NCBI GenBank assembly: GCA_003697105.1
Contig: RFFQ01000005.1
Location: 1 to 52,165, forward strand
Direction: 5' to 3'
DNA length: 52,165 nucleotides
Source of the DNA: Gemmatimonadota bacterium
Lineage (GTDB): Bacteria; 4572-55; J002
Positions 12,703-50,617 of the stretch are shown piece after piece (the first letter of the stretch is position 1; each line of letters starts with the position of its first letter). Both the position numbers and the translations under genes were made by a program. Under the pieces are notes generated by a model that did not search any database, had not been told where the DNA came from, and saw only the letters and a list, made by a program, of their open reading frames with translations.

Positions 12703-12722
12703 ACAGTTAGGAGGTTGTGCTA

Positions 12723-13985
12723 ATGGCAGAAAAACTCAATGTGCATGAGATGGCACTCATGCAGTTTCATAATGCGGCGGATGCGATTAATCTTAGCGCT
12801 GATATTCGTCGAATCTTAGAAAAACCAATGAACCAGTTTAAGGTGAATTTTCCGGTCAAGATGGACGACGGACACATTCAGGTTTTTCAGGGTTACCGGA
12901 TGCAACATAACAACGTGCTAGGACCGTTTAAGGGGGGGTTGCGGTATCACCCGACGGTCAACACAGCAGAGAGCATCGCCCTCGCCATGTGGATGACGTG
13001 GAAGAGTGCACTGGTCGATATTCCCTTTGGTGGGGCAAAAGGTGGCATCCAAATCGATCCCAGTCAATACTCGAAAGGAGAAATTGAACGGGTGACCCGG
13101 CGGTTTACCTATGCCCTCGGTCAAACCATTGGGCCTGAATTTGATATTCCTGCCCCAGATGTCAATACCAATGCTCAAACGATGGCGTGGATTTTAGATA
13201 CATACCTGCTGACCGTTCCACCCCACGAACGGCATGCCCACATCCACGTGGTGACCGGCAAACCGCTTGGCAGTGGAGGCAGTGAAGGGCGCGACAAAGC
13301 TACCGGTCAAGGTGTGGTTTACCTGATCGAGGAATGGGCAAATGACCGTGCATTCCCGCTAAAAAATGCCACCTATATGGTGCAAGGTTTCGGTAATGTG
13401 GGGTCCTGGTCTGCACGGCTGCTCAAACCGTTTGGCGCCAAAATGGTAGCTGTGCAGGATCACACCGGGTCCATTCGCAATTATAAGGGTATCGACCCGG
13501 ATGACCTCTACCAGTACGTCCAAAGTACCGGTGGTGTAAAAGATTATCCACAAGCGGAAGCCATCGACCCCGACGATTTCTTCGCCTCTGAAGCCGATAT
13601 TTTCATCCCCGCAGCACTGAGTGAAGTCATTACAGAAGATATTGCCCCCAAATTGAAAGTTAAATTAGTGGCGGAAGGCGCCAATGGTCCCACTACCCCG
13701 CATGGCGACCGCATCCTACGCGAACATGGGGTTAGTGTCATTCCTGATGTGCTTTGTAATGCCGGTGGCGTAACCGTTAGCTATTTTGAATGGTTGCAAA
13801 ATAAACGCAGTGAATTCTGGGATATTGAAGAGGTCGATATGAAACTCCGCCGTCGCTTGACCAAAGCCTACCGTCACATCACCAATATTGCTAAACAACA
13901 CGATTGTGATCTGCGTACCGGTGCATACATCGCCGCCCTCCTGCGGATTGAAAATACATACAAACACCGGGGAATTTTTCCGTAA
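12723..13985 (+). CDS. gdhA: Glutamate dehydrogenase (Glu/Leu/Phe/Val family)
   Basis: GPFKGGLRY, PFGGAKGG, DIPAPD, VTGKP, QGFGNVG, EGANGP; AGGAGG RBS. Confidence 0.95.
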   Translation: MAEKLNVHEMALMQFHNAADAINLSADIRRILEKPMNQFKVNFPVKMDDGHIQVFQGYRMQHNNVLGPFKGGLRYHPTVNTAESIALAMWMTWKSALVDIPFGGAKGGIQIDPSQYSKGEIERVTRRFTYALGQTIGPEFDIPAPDVNTNAQTMAWILDTYLLTVPPHERHAHIHVVTGKPLGSGGSEGRDKATGQGVVYLIEEWANDRAFPLKNATYMVQGFGNVGSWSARLLKPFGAKMVAVQDHTGSIRNYKGIDPDDLYQYVQSTGGVKDYPQAEAIDPDDFFASEADIFIPAALSEVITEDIAPKLKVKLVAEGANGPTTPHGDRILREHGVSVIPDVLCNAGGVTVSYFEWLQNKRSEFWDIEEVDMKLRRRLTKAYRHITNIAKQHDCDLRTGAYIAALLRIENTYKHRGIFP

Positions 13986-13986
13986 T

Positions 13987-14260
13987 GAGTTTTACGAGTT
14001 TGATGAGTTGGGGAGTTTGGGAGTTTTATGAGTTGGGGAGTTCGGGAGTTTGACGAGTTTTATGAGTTGGGGAGTTGGGGAGTTCGGGAGTTTGACGAGT
14101 TGGGGAGTTCGGGAGTTGGGGAGTTTGACGAGTTGGGGAGTTTGACGAGTTGGGGAGTTTGACGAGTTCGGGAGTTTGACGAGTTTGGTGAGTTTGGGAG
14201 TTCGGGAGTTCGGGAGTTTGACGAGTTTGTGAGTTTGACGAGTTTGTGAGTTGGGAAGTT
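13987..14260 (+). repeat. Combinatorial tandem array: 32 GAGTT cores (+1 AAGTT) separated by 3-4 nt linkers
   Basis: Manual parse: linkers drawn from GGG, CGG, TGG, TGT, TGAC, TTAT, TTAC, TGAT, TGGT; begins 1 nt after the gdhA TAA and ends 6 nt before the four-helix-bundle ATG. Confidence 0.97.
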
Positions 14261-14266
14261 GATATT

Positions 14267-14571
14267 ATGAGCCAAACAATAGAACGATTTGAGCAAATTC
14301 AGGCATGGCAAAAAGCGCGAGGTTTAACTCGTCAGGTGTACTCCATCACTCAAAATAGAACGTTTACAAAGGATTTCTCACTAAAAGATCAACTTAGGCG
14401 AGCCTCAAATTCTATCATGCTCAACATTGCAGAGGGTTTCGCTCTGCTCTATATATTGCTCTGGGTCACAGTTATATTTCGGAACCAGAGTTTCAATAGA
14501 TTGATGATGTTGCAAGTGAGGTTTCAAAAATAATTGCCGGATGTGTTCGACCTCTGAATTTTCGCAAATAA
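14267..14571 (+). pseudogene. Four-helix-bundle protein (23S rRNA IVP/bAvd-like family) pseudogene
   Basis: MSQTIERFEQIQAWQKAR...LKDQLRRASNSIMLNIAEGF, then internal deletion and frameshift at ~14443; continuation SALYIALGHSYISEPEFQ*IDDVASEVSKIIAG in another frame with premature TAG at 14497-14499. Confidence 0.9.
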
Positions 14572-14583
14572 CTCACGAAACTC
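14570..14583 (-). repeat. Two reverse-complement GAGTT units (AACTC-ACGA-AACTC) closing the four-helix-bundle cassette
   Basis: Lies between the pseudogene stop and the next ATG (14585); reverse complement is GAGTT-TCGT-GAGTT. Confidence 0.7.
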
Positions 14584-14584
14584 A

Positions 14585-15436
14585 ATGAATACAAAAAACA
14601 TTTCCTGGCGATTTTTAGATACCGGTGCACACGGTCCCGCCTATAACATGGCAGTGGATGAAGCCTTAATGCATCTTTGTACCCAACCAACATTGCGGGT
14701 ATACCGGTGGCAACCTTACACGATCTCTTTCGGTTATGGGCAGGAGATCGAGCAAGAGATCGATGTCGATGCACTCCACCGTTTCGGCTTCGGTTATGTG
14801 CGGCGTCCGACCGGTGGACGGGCGGTACTACATGCACACGAACTGACCTACAGTATCACCGTACGAGTGGACCAAGTCGAGTTTGGGAATAACGTTCTGG
14901 AAACCTACCGCTGGATCAGCCAAGGGCTACTGAACGCGCTCTCTGTACTAGGGGTTACGGAGGCAGAACTCCAAAAATCCCGCTTACCCGAGAAACGCAC
15001 CCACGGAAATCCCTGTTTTACCAGTGCTGGGCGCTATGAAATCTGCGTGAATAATCGAAAAATTATCGGTAGTGCCCAGCGCCGGACACAAGGACACATC
15101 TTACAGCATGGCTCATTTTTGATTGGGTCTGAACATCTCAGACTGATCGATTGTATTCCTCATTTAGAACCTACCCAACGCGAGCGCCTACGGCAAATTC
15201 TCACCCGTAAAACTATCGATTTAGAGACGTTGTTGCATCGGCCGGTATCTTACGAAGAAGTCGCCGGTGCTATGAAAACCGGCTTTCAACACGCATTTGA
15301 TTTGAATTTTGAAGATGGGTCATTGACATCTGAAGAAGAAAAATTATCTTATAGCTTGATCGAAAAGTACCGTTCCACAGCATGGAATTGGGAGCGAAAA
15401 CCGCGTCAATATCAATGGATAGGAGATGTCCCATGA
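14585..15436 (+). CDS. Lipoate-protein ligase A family / LipM-like octanoyltransferase
   Basis: NMAVDEAL, VRRPTGGRAVLH, CF, RKIIGSAQ, LQHGS. Confidence 0.92.
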   Translation: MNTKNISWRFLDTGAHGPAYNMAVDEALMHLCTQPTLRVYRWQPYTISFGYGQEIEQEIDVDALHRFGFGYVRRPTGGRAVLHAHELTYSITVRVDQVEFGNNVLETYRWISQGLLNALSVLGVTEAELQKSRLPEKRTHGNPCFTSAGRYEICVNNRKIIGSAQRRTQGHILQHGSFLIGSEHLRLIDCIPHLEPTQRERLRQILTRKTIDLETLLHRPVSYEEVAGAMKTGFQHAFDLNFEDGSLTSEEEKLSYSLIEKYRSTAWNWERKPRQYQWIGDVP

Positions 15437-48840: not shown

Positions 48841-49740
48841 ATGGCAATTTTAATTGATGAATCCAAAACGGTTCTCGTGCAAGGAATTACTGGACGAGAA
48901 GGCATGACCCGTGCCAAGTTGATGATGAATTATGGGACAAATGTCGTTGCCGGCTGTACACCGGGCAAAGGCGGTCAAATAGTGCTCGACAAAATTCCGG
49001 TATATGATACCGTGCAAGAAGCTACCGAACATCACGGTAAAATTGACATCAGTGTGATTTTTGTACCGGCGCCCTTGGTCAAAAATGCGGCATTGGAGGC
49101 AATTTATGCCGGCATTCAGTTGGTGGTTATCGTTCCGGATCGGGTGCCAATATACGACGTACTGGAAATCAGCCGCACAGCGAAAAAGTTCGGAGCCAAC
49201 TTTGTCGGTCCCAACACGCTGGGTTTGCTCAGCCCGGGCAAAGGAGTGCTCGGCATGATGGGCGGTCGTGCGGAAAGTGCCCGCAAGTGGTTCAAAGCGG
49301 GCAACGTCGGTGTGACCTCACGGAGTGGTGGAATGACCAGTTCGATGGCGTATTACCTCAGCCAAAATGGTATCGGGCTATCCACCATAGTCCATGTGGG
49401 CGGGGATGCCGTGGTGGGAATGCCCCACCCCAAAATCGTCGAACAGTTTGAACACGACCCCCAAACCGAAGCAGTTGTGATGTTCGGGGAAATTGGCACG
49501 TCCCAAGAAGAAACCGTTGCCGACCTCATCGAACAAGGTAAATTCACAAAACCGTTGGTCGCTTACATTGGTGGTAAAGCCGCTAAAGAAGGCACCCGTT
49601 TTTCCCATGCTGGAGCCATTGTCGAAGGTAACCGCGGTACACACGCCGGAAAAGTCGCCCGGTTGCGCGAAGTCGGCGCGATTGTGGTAGATTCCTTCGC
49701 CGATATACCCGCTGCCACTAAATCTGTTTTGAGCAGATGA
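48841..49740 (+). CDS. CoA-ligase alpha subunit (SucD-like; citryl-CoA synthetase small subunit/ACL-alpha N-terminal-like)
   Basis: QGITG, GPNTLG, SRSGG, GEIG, phospho-His motif RFSHAGA. Confidence 0.88.
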   Translation: MAILIDESKTVLVQGITGREGMTRAKLMMNYGTNVVAGCTPGKGGQIVLDKIPVYDTVQEATEHHGKIDISVIFVPAPLVKNAALEAIYAGIQLVVIVPDRVPIYDVLEISRTAKKFGANFVGPNTLGLLSPGKGVLGMMGGRAESARKWFKAGNVGVTSRSGGMTSSMAYYLSQNGIGLSTIVHVGGDAVVGMPHPKIVEQFEHDPQTEAVVMFGEIGTSQEETVADLIEQGKFTKPLVAYIGGKAAKEGTRFSHAGAIVEGNRGTHAGKVARLREVGAIVVDSFADIPAATKSVLSR

Positions 49741-49794
49741 GTTTTGCGAGTTGGGGAGTTTGATGAGTTTTACGAGTTGGGGAGTTGGGGAGGT
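49739..49794 (+). repeat. Second GAGTT array (6 cores + GAGGT) without cargo gene
   Basis: T-GAGTT ttgc GAGTT ggg GAGTT tgat GAGTT ttac GAGTT ggg GAGTT ggg GAGGT; first core overlaps the TGA stop. Confidence 0.92.
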
Positions 49795-49795
49795 G

Positions 49796-49823
49796 CTCAC
49801 TGGTAACTGTAAACTACTAACTG
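49796..49823 (+). repeat. Four heptamers of nnnACTR type
   Basis: CTCACTG GTAACTG TAAACTA CTAACTG directly after the GAGTT array. Confidence 0.55.
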
Positions 49824-49843
49824 CATTAAAATGAGGTCTTAAA

Positions 49844-50617
49844 ATGGTAGATACATGGAAAACAGAAATTACAAATATTAAACCTAATAAAGTGATGCTA
49901 CGTGGCTATCCCATCGACCAGTTGATGGGCAACATCTCCTACGCACAAGGCGTTTATCTGGCATTAAAAGGTGAATTACCCACCGAAAATGTGGGTAAAC
50001 TAATAGACGCAATACTCGTATCCTCCATCGATCATGGGGTGACGCCACCCTCGGCAATGGCAGCCATGATCGCCGCCTCCACCGGAGCGGCACTGAACAG
50101 CGCCCTTGCCGCCGGAATTTTATCCATTAACCGCTTTCACGGCGGCGCAATTGAAGATTGTATGCGGGCAATTCTGGAAGTCAAAGCCTACAAAGAGGAA
50201 CAGCAGTGTGATGATGCCACTGCCGCTACGGCAATCGTAGCTAATTATCGCGCTAAAAAAGTACGGATTGCCGGCTTCGGACATCGAATTCATACCGAAG
50301 ACCCACGCACGATTAAACTATTTCGATTGGCAGACGAATTAAACCTTGCGGGAGAATTTGTGGAATTGGGAAAGGCGCTGGAAGCCGCGATTAGTGAATC
50401 TCTGGGCAAAAAATTACCGATGAACGTAGATGGCGCTATCGCCGCCCTGCTCTGTGAATTGGATTTTGAACCTGATCTGGCAAACGCCTTCTTTATCATG
50501 GCACGGGTGCCCGGCTTAGTGGCGCACATCCGTGAAGAACAGACCCGGCAAAAACCGATGCGGCGTATCGACCCCAATAATTGGGAGTACGATGGTGCGG
50601 AAGAGCGTTTTTTGTAA
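49844..50617 (+). CDS. Citryl-CoA lyase (citrate synthase superfamily, ACL C-terminal-like)
   Basis: IDHGVTPPS, FHGGAIE, GFGHRIH..DPR, NVDGAIA, R..GL.AH..E; 257 aa. Confidence 0.88.
   Translation: MVDTWKTEITNIKPNKVMLRGYPIDQLMGNISYAQGVYLALKGELPTENVGKLIDAILVSSIDHGVTPPSAMAAMIAASTGAALNSALAAGILSINRFHGGAIEDCMRAILEVKAYKEEQQCDDATAATAIVANYRAKKVRIAGFGHRIHTEDPRTIKLFRLADELNLAGEFVELGKALEAAISESLGKKLPMNVDGAIAALLCELDFEPDLANAFFIMARVPGLVAHIREEQTRQKPMRRIDPNNWEYDGAEERFL

Follow-up and report, generated by a model that had tools for sequence, protein, structure and literature searches.

The spacer between a gdhA-like dehydrogenase gene and a lipoate-protein ligase gene in the analyzed stretch of DNA (52,165 nt, hereafter the window) is probably, although far from certainly, the relic of a cassette that resembles the intervening sequences (IVS) of 23S rRNA, carried a four-helix-bundle (4HB) gene, and was built from the tandem-repeat family found at gene boundaries throughout this genome. 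The 4HB gene is a pseudogene, i.e., a dead member of the PF05635/TIGR02436 family. The layout that the initial annotation had described, namely, a cassette filling the whole junction, proved to be the usual setting of 4HB genes in other genomes.

Structure of the gdhA–lplA Junction

The gdhA-like Glu/Leu/Phe/Val dehydrogenase gene occupies an ORF on the plus strand (12717–13985; PF00208, E = 1e-72; PF02812, E = 1.4e-56), the TAA stop of which (13983–13985) lies 1 nt before the 5′ arm, a tandem array of 32 GAGTT cores on the same strand (13987–14252). The cores are separated by spacers of 3–4 nt, i.e., the units lie 8–9 nt apart, and TRF, which set the end of the array at 14260, reported a period of 8 along with the higher-order periods 17, 34, and 42. 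The pattern GAGTT-N3-GAGTT was observed in the window 20 times versus 0.05 expected, and GAGTT-N4-GAGTT 17 times versus 0.04 expected. With a length of 266 nt, this array is the longest among the 53 arrays of the genome. Each of the contigs matched to the locus breaks within it, and one contig of run X2 contained a 17-nt insertion behind position 13993, which corresponds to a two-unit indel in the array. Positions 14305–14572 were not covered by any contig of run X2, and the gap was unbridged; this run is therefore silent on the presence or absence of the pseudogene.

On the other side of the 4HB gene, two inverted GAGTT units make up the remnant of a 3′ arm (14570–14583, minus strand, GAGTTTCGTGAGTT), with an alignment score of 23 to the array. 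These units overlap the ancestral stop codon of the 4HB gene and end 1 nt ahead of the ATG (14585) of the gene encoding a lipoate-protein ligase of the LplA/LipB family (14585–15436, plus strand; PF21948, E = 1.4e-33; PF03099, E = 3.3e-19). The gdhA and lplA genes are co-directional, and the cassette fills the junction between them from stop to start. The initial annotation had listed the same succession of parts (TAA, 32 GAGTT units, a decayed 4HB gene, inverted units, and the ATG of lplA), and all of them were found, with slight corrections of the coordinates. No Rfam family, rRNA included, matched the whole window at gathering thresholds, and a promoter and terminator scan of positions 13800–14800 gave a number of sites not above that in shuffled sequences. 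Only two relatives at the class level were available for comparison (G001 and G002); their lplA was 43–44% identical and had different neighbors, with no gdhA–lplA synteny.

Decay of the Four-Helix-Bundle Gene

The ORF located at 14267–14533 matched PF05635 (E = 1.5e-15, 57.8 bits with a cut-off of 33.8) at profile positions 1–51 of 106 and TIGR02436 (E = 3.7e-13, 49.7 bits with a cut-off of 24). Its ATG is situated 14 nt past the end of the 5′ array. The N-terminal half of the gene, which corresponds to helices 1–2 (14267–14443, plus strand), looks intact and matched positions 1–53 of our own profile. The C-terminal half (14444–14571, plus strand), which was traced by three-frame translation and a profile search, is decayed: approximately 20 codons are gone, a frameshift and an in-frame TAG are present, and the ancestral stop TAA lies at 14569–14571. 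The frame starting at 14242 gave a weak match to profile positions 47–106 (i-Evalue 1.2e-4, with X at the stop), and the helix-4 remnant sits in a frame different from that of the N-terminal half. A full-length four-helix domain in one open frame is absent, as only profile positions 1–51 are in frame. The N-terminal half shares 44% identity with the intact paralog on contig C49.

The GAGTT Array Family Across the Genome

A total of 53 GAGTT(N3–4) arrays with 463 units were found in the genome, versus at most 18 arrays for permuted pentamers, and the four-unit pattern had 190 matches here versus 0–1 per genome in 30 other genomes. The arrays vary in length, 18 array ends reach the ends of contigs, and such arrays break short-read assemblies. 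Their placement is polar: among the 33 usable arrays, the 5′ end lay within −10 to +7 nt of an ORF boundary in 24 (17 stops and 7 starts) and the 3′ end in 4, with median distances to the boundary of 2 nt and 50 nt, respectively (sign test, p = 0.0046). The 5′ ends abut the stops of co-directional genes or the starts of divergent genes. A second array of the window, with six units (49739–49786, plus strand), begins within the TGA stop codon of a CoA-ligase alpha-type gene and lacks a neighboring 4HB gene; thus, the repeats also occur independently of the cassette.

The genome contains three 4HB genes, two of which have a GAGTT array directly on the 5′ side in the same orientation; the chance of such a coincidence was estimated at roughly 1e-3, given 53 arrays and about 3250 crudely called genes. 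The other 51 of the 53 arrays do not adjoin a 4HB gene, and the earlier proposal of cis signals is therefore not supported in the sense of signals private to that gene. The translations of the genes next to most arrays resemble, as judged by eye, ordinary unrelated proteins, and the supposition that small array-adjoining genes are selfish cassettes was dropped on the same grounds. It was also considered that most arrays might be gene-less hairpins, and this was abandoned because only 3 of 46 arrays had an inverted partner with a score higher than those of the controls (the C121 pair and, marginally, C183). An ORF of 64 aa between the inverted arrays of C121 had no Pfam match. Consequently, any function of most arrays would involve neither a partner nor a 4HB gene.

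The 3′ Arm and Folding of the Cassette

The complementarity of the cassette flanks, which had been put forward in the initial annotation, was confirmed only insofar as the two inverted units exist. The complementary part of the flanks comprises 14 nt, and the score of 23 matches the top score among 46 controls (the maximum of the cross-locus controls being 26). The 607-nt cassette had a folding energy of −160.3 kcal/mol versus −161.25 kcal/mol for shuffled sequences (z = +0.17), and two-unit GAGTT matches were not enriched genome-wide (21 versus 5–61 for control pentamers). The ends of the cassette at this locus do not appear to make a credible stem. Of the two other 4HB loci of the genome, one has the 5′ array, as described above, but the intact paralog on contig C49 had no long 3′ arm (score 14), and it follows that the gdhA–lplA locus need never have had one.

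Four-Helix-Bundle Loci in Other Genomes

The comparison set comprised 29 4HB loci from 24 other genomes, 28 of which were used in the tests involving both flanks. Arrays with a period of 7–9 were detected within 150 nt upstream of the gene at 18 of the 29 loci, downstream at 23 of 28, and on both sides at 16 of 28, and repeats covered 19.2% of the 4HB flanks versus 2.4% elsewhere in the same loci. According to the alignment of the 5′ flank with the reverse complement of the 3′ flank, 17 of 28 loci beat all 112 cross-locus controls; in the control with windows moved by 1 kb, 4 of 53 scores were above the cross-locus 95th percentile, and none of the 53 was above 27 (cross-locus maximum, 26). Inverted flanks were also revealed at three of the five loci of a replicate set. 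The inverted arms in these genomes are locus-specific tandem repeats of 7–9 nt, and several of the 5′ arrays begin at, or a few nt from, the end of the upstream gene. A co-directional neighbor was present upstream at 21 of 27 loci and downstream at 20 of 26. An intact cassette (L139) had a long terminal stem with a fold z of −5.86. In the arms of 17 cassettes (627 matches and 58 transversions), G–U-compatible mismatches of the sense strand were not in excess (18, with 16 on the antisense strand), and the test therefore does not tell RNA-level pairing from a DNA-level inverted repeat.

The nfeD–SPFH junction was followed in 16 related genomes, of which nine carried the 4HB gene, one a decayed copy, one was empty but for an array, and four carried other inserts. 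The identity of the 4HB protein tracked that of the flanking gene (93/92, 90/89, 89/89, 79/80, and 80/79%, respectively), which indicates vertical descent with losses. The arms of this series had little in common beyond the 4-nt core AGCG with variable spacers (scores of 14–40), and consequently they would form a weak stem and rather resemble a binding motif in several copies. At one junction, two congeners with an 81% identical flanking protein differed both in the 4HB gene (36% identity) and in its arms. In lineages other than that of the window, the state of a junction ranged from empty to occupied, the occupant being in some cases a different 4HB gene. Arm units also differed between two paralogs of one genome (L138 and L175), and gene-less inverted GAACTGA pairs were found in genome G037. 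In a phylum sample of 61 genomes from 40 genera, PF05635 and (GAACTGA)3 arrays were confined to one common genus; one genome of this genus had 13 array matches and no PF05635 match.

Discussion

The IVS analogy drawn in the initial annotation holds for the layout. According to PMC4990558, the ORF-bearing 23S rRNA IVS of Coxiella and Leptospira encode the S23p protein, which likewise belongs to PF05635; the small ORF occupies the loop enclosed by terminal inverted repeats, 7-nt tandem repeats of strain-variable copy number directly precede the start codon, the ORF is prone to decay, and the element resides within the host transcript. Unlike these elements, the cassette of the window is situated between protein genes and has a unit of 8–9 nt, a 32-unit 5′ array, and a vestigial 3′ arm. 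Cutting by RNase III has been shown for the 23S rRNA IVS (PMC4990558), and by analogy we infer it for the intergenic 4HB cassettes: in the transcript of an intact one, the arms would form a long stem by pairing, and its cleavage by RNase III would leave the small gene looped out or set free and would insulate the adjacent cistrons. Excision would not be expected of the cassette of the window, since its 3′ arm is only 14 nt long and its ORF is broken. At most, the 266-nt array may stay active as a slippage-prone tract, which would be transcribed behind gdhA if read-through occurs.

As for the arrays, tandem heptamers known as STRR are found between genes in cyanobacteria. TAACTGA repeats were described in Beggiatoaceae, Cyanobacteria, and Bacteroidetes, where they end about 1 nt ahead of start codons (PMC4679880), and GGGAATC and GGGGA(C/T)T repeats in Xanthomonas and Nostoc, where they lie nearer to the 5′ neighboring ORF whatever its orientation (PMC4692102). 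Like the GAGTT arrays, these heptamer arrays are numerous per genome, nearly all intergenic, and polar, with some overlaps of upstream stop codons, whole-unit indels, and convergent pairs (PMC4679880, PMC4692102). The accessible text of both papers contained no four-helix-bundle or IVS-protein terms, i.e., no link to the gene family is made there. The GAGTT arrays differ from the heptamers in that their unit consists of a 5-nt core and a variable spacer of 3–4 nt, with a period of 8–9 nt.

The accessory protein bAvd of diversity-generating retroelements (DGR) is a nucleic-acid binder and pentameric. It is homologous to the 4HB proteins in fold and family (PMC10053308). Its setting is different, as neither a reverse transcriptase nor a template/variable repeat pair adjoins the 4HB gene of the window, which is flanked by gdhA and lplA. 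Foldback elements and MITEs have inverted terminal arms, sometimes with short tandem repeats, and occur as gene-less hairpins beside gene-bearing copies. The gene-less inverted pairs of G037 may be compared with such derivatives; unlike foldback elements and MITEs, however, the cassette of the window showed no transposase, target duplication, or identical copies, and inheritance was vertical in the one 4HB series that was followed.

In another reading of the data, which we consider rather unlikely, the arrays are tandem binding sites, several cores of which are read in RNA, ssDNA, or dsDNA by a pentameric ring of the 4HB protein; the gene would then sit between two sites of its own, and the approximately 50 other arrays would be trans targets of the C49 paralog. 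TRAP is known to bind spaced GAG triplets. Binding would fit the conservation of a core of 4–5 nt next to a variable spacer (GAGTT + N3–4 here and AGCG + N3 at nfeD–SPFH) and the occurrence of PF05635 and (GAACTGA)3 arrays in the same single genus, and the closest solved relative, 2gsc, was deposited with five chains and is described as a homopentamer (PMC4990558). However, co-occurrence at the genus level amounts to a single phylogenetic event, the genome with 13 array matches lacks PF05635, and the two array-adjoining 4HB genes of this genome are only 44% identical in the N-terminal half, while the different arm units of L138 and L175 would call for many specificities. To our knowledge, binding has been demonstrated for no member of the 4HB family except DGR Avd. 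It is unlikely that the 4HB protein is the missing trans factor of boundary heptamer and octamer arrays, with the C49 paralog governing about 50 of them; if this were true, mRNA processing, mRNA stability, or translational coupling would be set at the junctions where these arrays abut stops and starts, and the gene would have been born between its own sites, the dead copy being a retired member whose array persists as a target. A mobile, transposase-less cassette that targets gene junctions, with the arrays as terminal repeats and movement aided by the 4HB protein, had been proposed in the initial annotation and appears improbable. Such an element would have arms like those observed elsewhere, which are 85–95% complementary and take in unique inner sequence in the manner of terminal inverted repeats; the variable occupancy of the nfeD–SPFH junction among the 16 genomes, the two congeners with different 4HB genes and arms at one junction, and the PF05635 genes wedged inside cas operons (PMC3936711) also agree with movement. 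At nfeD–SPFH, however, descent was vertical with losses, the three 4HB genes of this genome are diverged with no near-identical copies among them, no target-site duplication was seen and no recombinase adjoins the cassette at the gdhA–lplA locus, and the arrays, mostly solo, far outnumber the gene.

Finally, the locus might be a coincidence of a microsatellite-like array grown by slippage, an unrelated pseudogene, and two inverted units arising by chance. This would agree with the 51 of 53 arrays that have no neighboring 4HB gene, with two-unit matches no commoner than those of control pentamers, and with a 3′ match and a fold no better than the best control and the shuffled sequences, respectively. 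We nevertheless regard it as very improbable: two of the three 4HB genes have on their 5′ side an array oriented as they are, the family elsewhere shows a strong enrichment of array flanks, and the two inverted units are placed, 1 nt off the start codon, as the family layout and the anchoring rule prescribe.

A statement that PF05635 genes outside rRNA have inverted tandem-array flanks was not found in the literature, the scope of the search being main texts outside subscription journals. The polar placement of arrays at gene boundaries has been reported before for G-rich heptamers (PMC4692102). What the window adds is a core-plus-spacer variant of the repeat unit with a period of 8–9 nt, an evident example of a gene that decayed while its 32-unit array persisted, and a genome with 53 arrays, most of them solo, versus three 4HB genes. 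Two puzzles meet here, namely, the function of the PF05635 "IVS protein" and the origin and role of the abundant boundary arrays with units of 7–9 nt, known from cyanobacteria, Bacteroidota, Xanthomonas, and large sulfur bacteria and now also seen in a deep-branching lineage. Should the gene and the arrays prove to form one system, simple assays could address either puzzle, and the rRNA IVS would be a special case of a general operon-dwelling cassette.

Structure of the gdhA–lplA Cassette

The analyzed genome is a draft assembly of 4.18 Mb in 199 contigs, one of which is the window. The gene of a Glu/Leu/Phe/Val dehydrogenase (gdhA; 12717–13985, plus strand; Pfam E-value = 1 × 10−72) ends with a TAA stop codon at 13983–13985, and a plus-strand tandem array, in which 32 GAGTT cores alternate with spacers of 3–4 variable bases, extends from 1 nt past this stop to 14252. 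The array periods were 8, 17, 34, and 42 (TRF), and the counts of spaced GAGTT pairs in the window reached 20 and 17, with 0.05 and 0.04 expected. The ATG of an ORF of the four-helix-bundle (4HB) family lies 14 nt 3′ of the array (PF05635, E-value = 1.5 × 10−15; TIGR02436, E-value = 3.7 × 10−13), the match being confined to the first half of both profiles. Three-frame translation revealed a decayed C-terminal part: about 20 codons are lost, the helix-4 remnant has shifted frame and contains an in-frame TAG, and the ancestral TAA occupies 14569–14571. Two inverted GAGTT units (14570–14583, minus strand) overlap this ancestral stop and lie 1 nt 5′ of the ATG of the lipoate-protein ligase gene (lplA). 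Coordinates, Pfam matches, and translation are in agreement with this order of elements, as described in the initial annotation. A two-unit insertion was found within the array in sequencing run X2; the array between gdhA and lplA is a length-variable tract that is still present. An 83-codon open frame on its reverse strand (14060–14311, minus strand), a PNS/SNS-rich repeat, was taken for a by-product of the repeat and not for a gene.

The flanks of the cassette had been described as complementary, and the two inverted units are indeed present, but their complementarity is weak: aligned to the array they scored 23, equal to the best of 46 controls (cross-locus maximum 26), and shuffled sequence folded as well as the 607-nt cassette (z = +0.17). 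Two-unit GAGTT matches were not enriched across the genome (21 versus 5–61 for control pentamers), and 14 of the 21 fall within ORFs. Since the 1-nt distance to the lplA start codon fits the anchoring rule of arrays in this genome, we regard the two units as a genuine mini-array rather than a functional arm. The 4HB gene of the window cassette is dead and its 3′ arm is vestigial, so no excision is expected from it.

GAGTT Arrays across the Genome

The genome contained 53 arrays of at least three GAGTT units (463 units in total), compared with no more than 18 arrays for permuted pentamers. The four-unit pattern matched 190 times, versus 0–1 in each of 30 other genomes, both class-level relatives included; octamer arrays of the GAGTT type are present in many other phyla. 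PF05635 matched only three times, namely, the window copy, an intact gene on contig C49, and one on contig C113, and a GAGTT array lies directly 5′, in the same orientation, at two of these three genes. The reading of the repeats as signals private to the 4HB gene is not sustained, given 53 arrays against three PF05635 matches and a second array in the window (49739–49786), which is far from any 4HB gene and begins within the TGA stop codon of a gene of the CoA-ligase alpha type. The ORFs adjoining the arrays appear, judging by their translations alone, to encode ordinary, unrelated proteins.

The second array is directly followed by a short AACTG/AACTA-type heptamer run (49787–49830), resembling published TAACTGA repeats, upstream of a citrate-synthase-like gene starting at 49844. 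The CoA-ligase alpha-type gene and this gene, which has the citrate synthase C-terminal domain only, occupy 48841–50617, a pair typical of the reductive TCA cycle enzymes citryl-CoA synthetase/lyase. Other repeat families occur downstream of many GAGTT arrays (e.g., C66:5760–5803 and contigs C183, C160, and C67), including a conserved linker that precedes CCCTAAATCC-type arrays, heptamer runs of CATCCTT (C3, C38, and C49 from 30385 onward), and a TTGTACACTGCTAACTG-type module. A clear pair of inverted arrays was found in this genome only at C121:1–440, where it encloses a 64-codon ORF without a Pfam match that is not a 4HB gene. The GAGTT array of this pair is at the start of the contig, and its inverted partner, of 14 units, stops 22 nt before the ATG of the next gene. 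The third 4HB gene (C113:21960–22400) has no tandem arrays; its flanks carry an imperfect 26-nt inverted repeat, scoring 28 and thereby marginally above the 26 reached by controls. One copy of this repeat, the left one, falls within the end of the gene upstream.

For 33 arrays, both neighbours could be called. Read in the orientation of GAGTT, 24 of these have their 5′ end near an ORF boundary (−10 to +7 nt), at 17 stops of co-directional genes and 7 starts of divergent genes, and 4 have their 3′ end there; the median distances were 2 nt and 50 nt, respectively (sign test, p = 0.0046). Contig ends coincided with 18 array ends. The same polarity is described for G-rich heptamers in Xanthomonas and Nostoc, where the arrays are nearer the 5′ neighbouring ORF in any orientation (PMC4692102). 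It is also described for TAACTGA repeats: these either stop about 1 nt short of a start codon or overlap the stop codon of the gene upstream (PMC4679880). The GAGTT arrays, with a core-plus-spacer unit of 8–9 nt, are a new addition to the known tandem arrays at gene boundaries.

Four-Helix-Bundle Genes in Other Genomes

The survey covered 29 PF05635 loci of 24 other genomes, chosen from a set of 61 for the strength of their profile matches and without reference to repeats. Arrays with a period of 7–9 were found within 150 nt of the 4HB gene upstream in 18/29, downstream in 23/28, and on both sides in 16/28 loci, and repeats covered 19.2% of the 4HB flanks versus 2.4% of the remaining locus sequence. 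The reverse-complemented upstream unit equals the downstream unit, while the unit itself varies between loci. When the 3′ flank was reverse-complemented and aligned locally with the 5′ flank, the score exceeded all 112 cross-locus controls (maximum 26) in 17/28 loci; in windows shifted by 1 kb, 4/53 were over the 95th percentile of the controls and 0/53 over 27. In a further set, inverted flanks were present in 3/5 loci, with units differing between loci of one genome. The neighbours of the 4HB gene were mostly co-directional (upstream 21/27, downstream 20/26), with gaps mostly of 25–150 nt, and several 5′ arrays begin at, or a few nucleotides from, the end of the upstream gene. An intact cassette (L139) folded (z = −5.86) into a structure closed by a long stem at its ends. 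Thus, the array-flanked layout is the norm for the PF05635 gene family.

Arm units also belong to array families elsewhere in their own genomes, with roughly 4 further sites in G047 and 10 in G041; G037 has more than 25, gene-less inverted pairs among them. In 61 genomes of one phylum, PF05635 and (GAACTGA)3 arrays were both limited to the same single genus, one member of which has the arrays without the gene; this co-occurrence counts as one phylogenetic event. In a Desulfatiglandales MAG (L013:1110–1364, minus strand), the insertion of a GIY-YIG nuclease ORF (Pfam E-value = 1 × 10−16) has split a 4HB gene that adjoins a GAGTTGTT array.

Inheritance of the Cassette

A cassette was located in the nfeD–SPFH junction (genes identified by Pfam) in the family of genome G006. 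Of 16 genomes, nine had the gene, one a decayed gene, one an empty junction (a 63-nt gap holding only a five-unit array), and four other 1.1-kb inserts, and one was cut by a contig end. The identities of the 4HB and flanking genes were 93/92, 90/89, 89/89, 79/80, 80/79, 60/73, 70/71, and 76/70%. Because 4HB identity tracks that of the flanking gene, the cassette is inherited vertically with losses in this series, which runs counter to the mobile element proposed in the initial annotation. The arm units differ by genus (an AGCG core in some, the GGGTCAAGG type in another), and the arms are complementary in most genera despite this change; one genome, G077, scores only 14. In contrast to this series, two congeners that share another cassette-bearing junction had flanking proteins 81% identical, 4HB genes only 36% identical, and unrelated arms.

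It should be noted that the nfeD–SPFH junction is an insertion hot spot. In G076 (L163), a 1.1-kb gene is inserted and the junction is duplicated over 75–100 nt on either side, including the end of nfeD, the heptamer array, and the ribosome-binding region, and three other genomes (L162, L157, and L171) carry a different gene, encoding a 325-aa lipoprotein-like product.

Known Systems and Probable Mode of Action

No statement that operon PF05635 genes are bracketed by inverted tandem arrays was found in the open-access article texts searched; a passage on PF05635 genes wedged inside cas operons contains no mention of repeats (PMC3936711). A solved relative of the 4HB family, 2gsc (E-value = 8.6 × 10−28), was deposited with five chains.

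Arm mismatches had no G-U bias (18 versus 16, with 58 transversions), and some arms have only a 4-nt core in common. Both features speak against a simple stem; a repeated protein-binding site would fit the lack of bias and the core-only arms equally well. The closest system described is the ORF-bearing intervening sequence (IVS) of 23S rRNA, which encodes a protein of the same family; RNase III cleaves its 28-bp terminal stem, and the tandem heptamers immediately 5′ of its start codon vary in number between strains (PMC4990558). The cassette represents an IVS variant located outside rRNA. By analogy with the ORF-bearing 23S rRNA IVS, the most likely mode of action inferred for this kind would be a looping-out of the intact cassette from the transcript of its operon.
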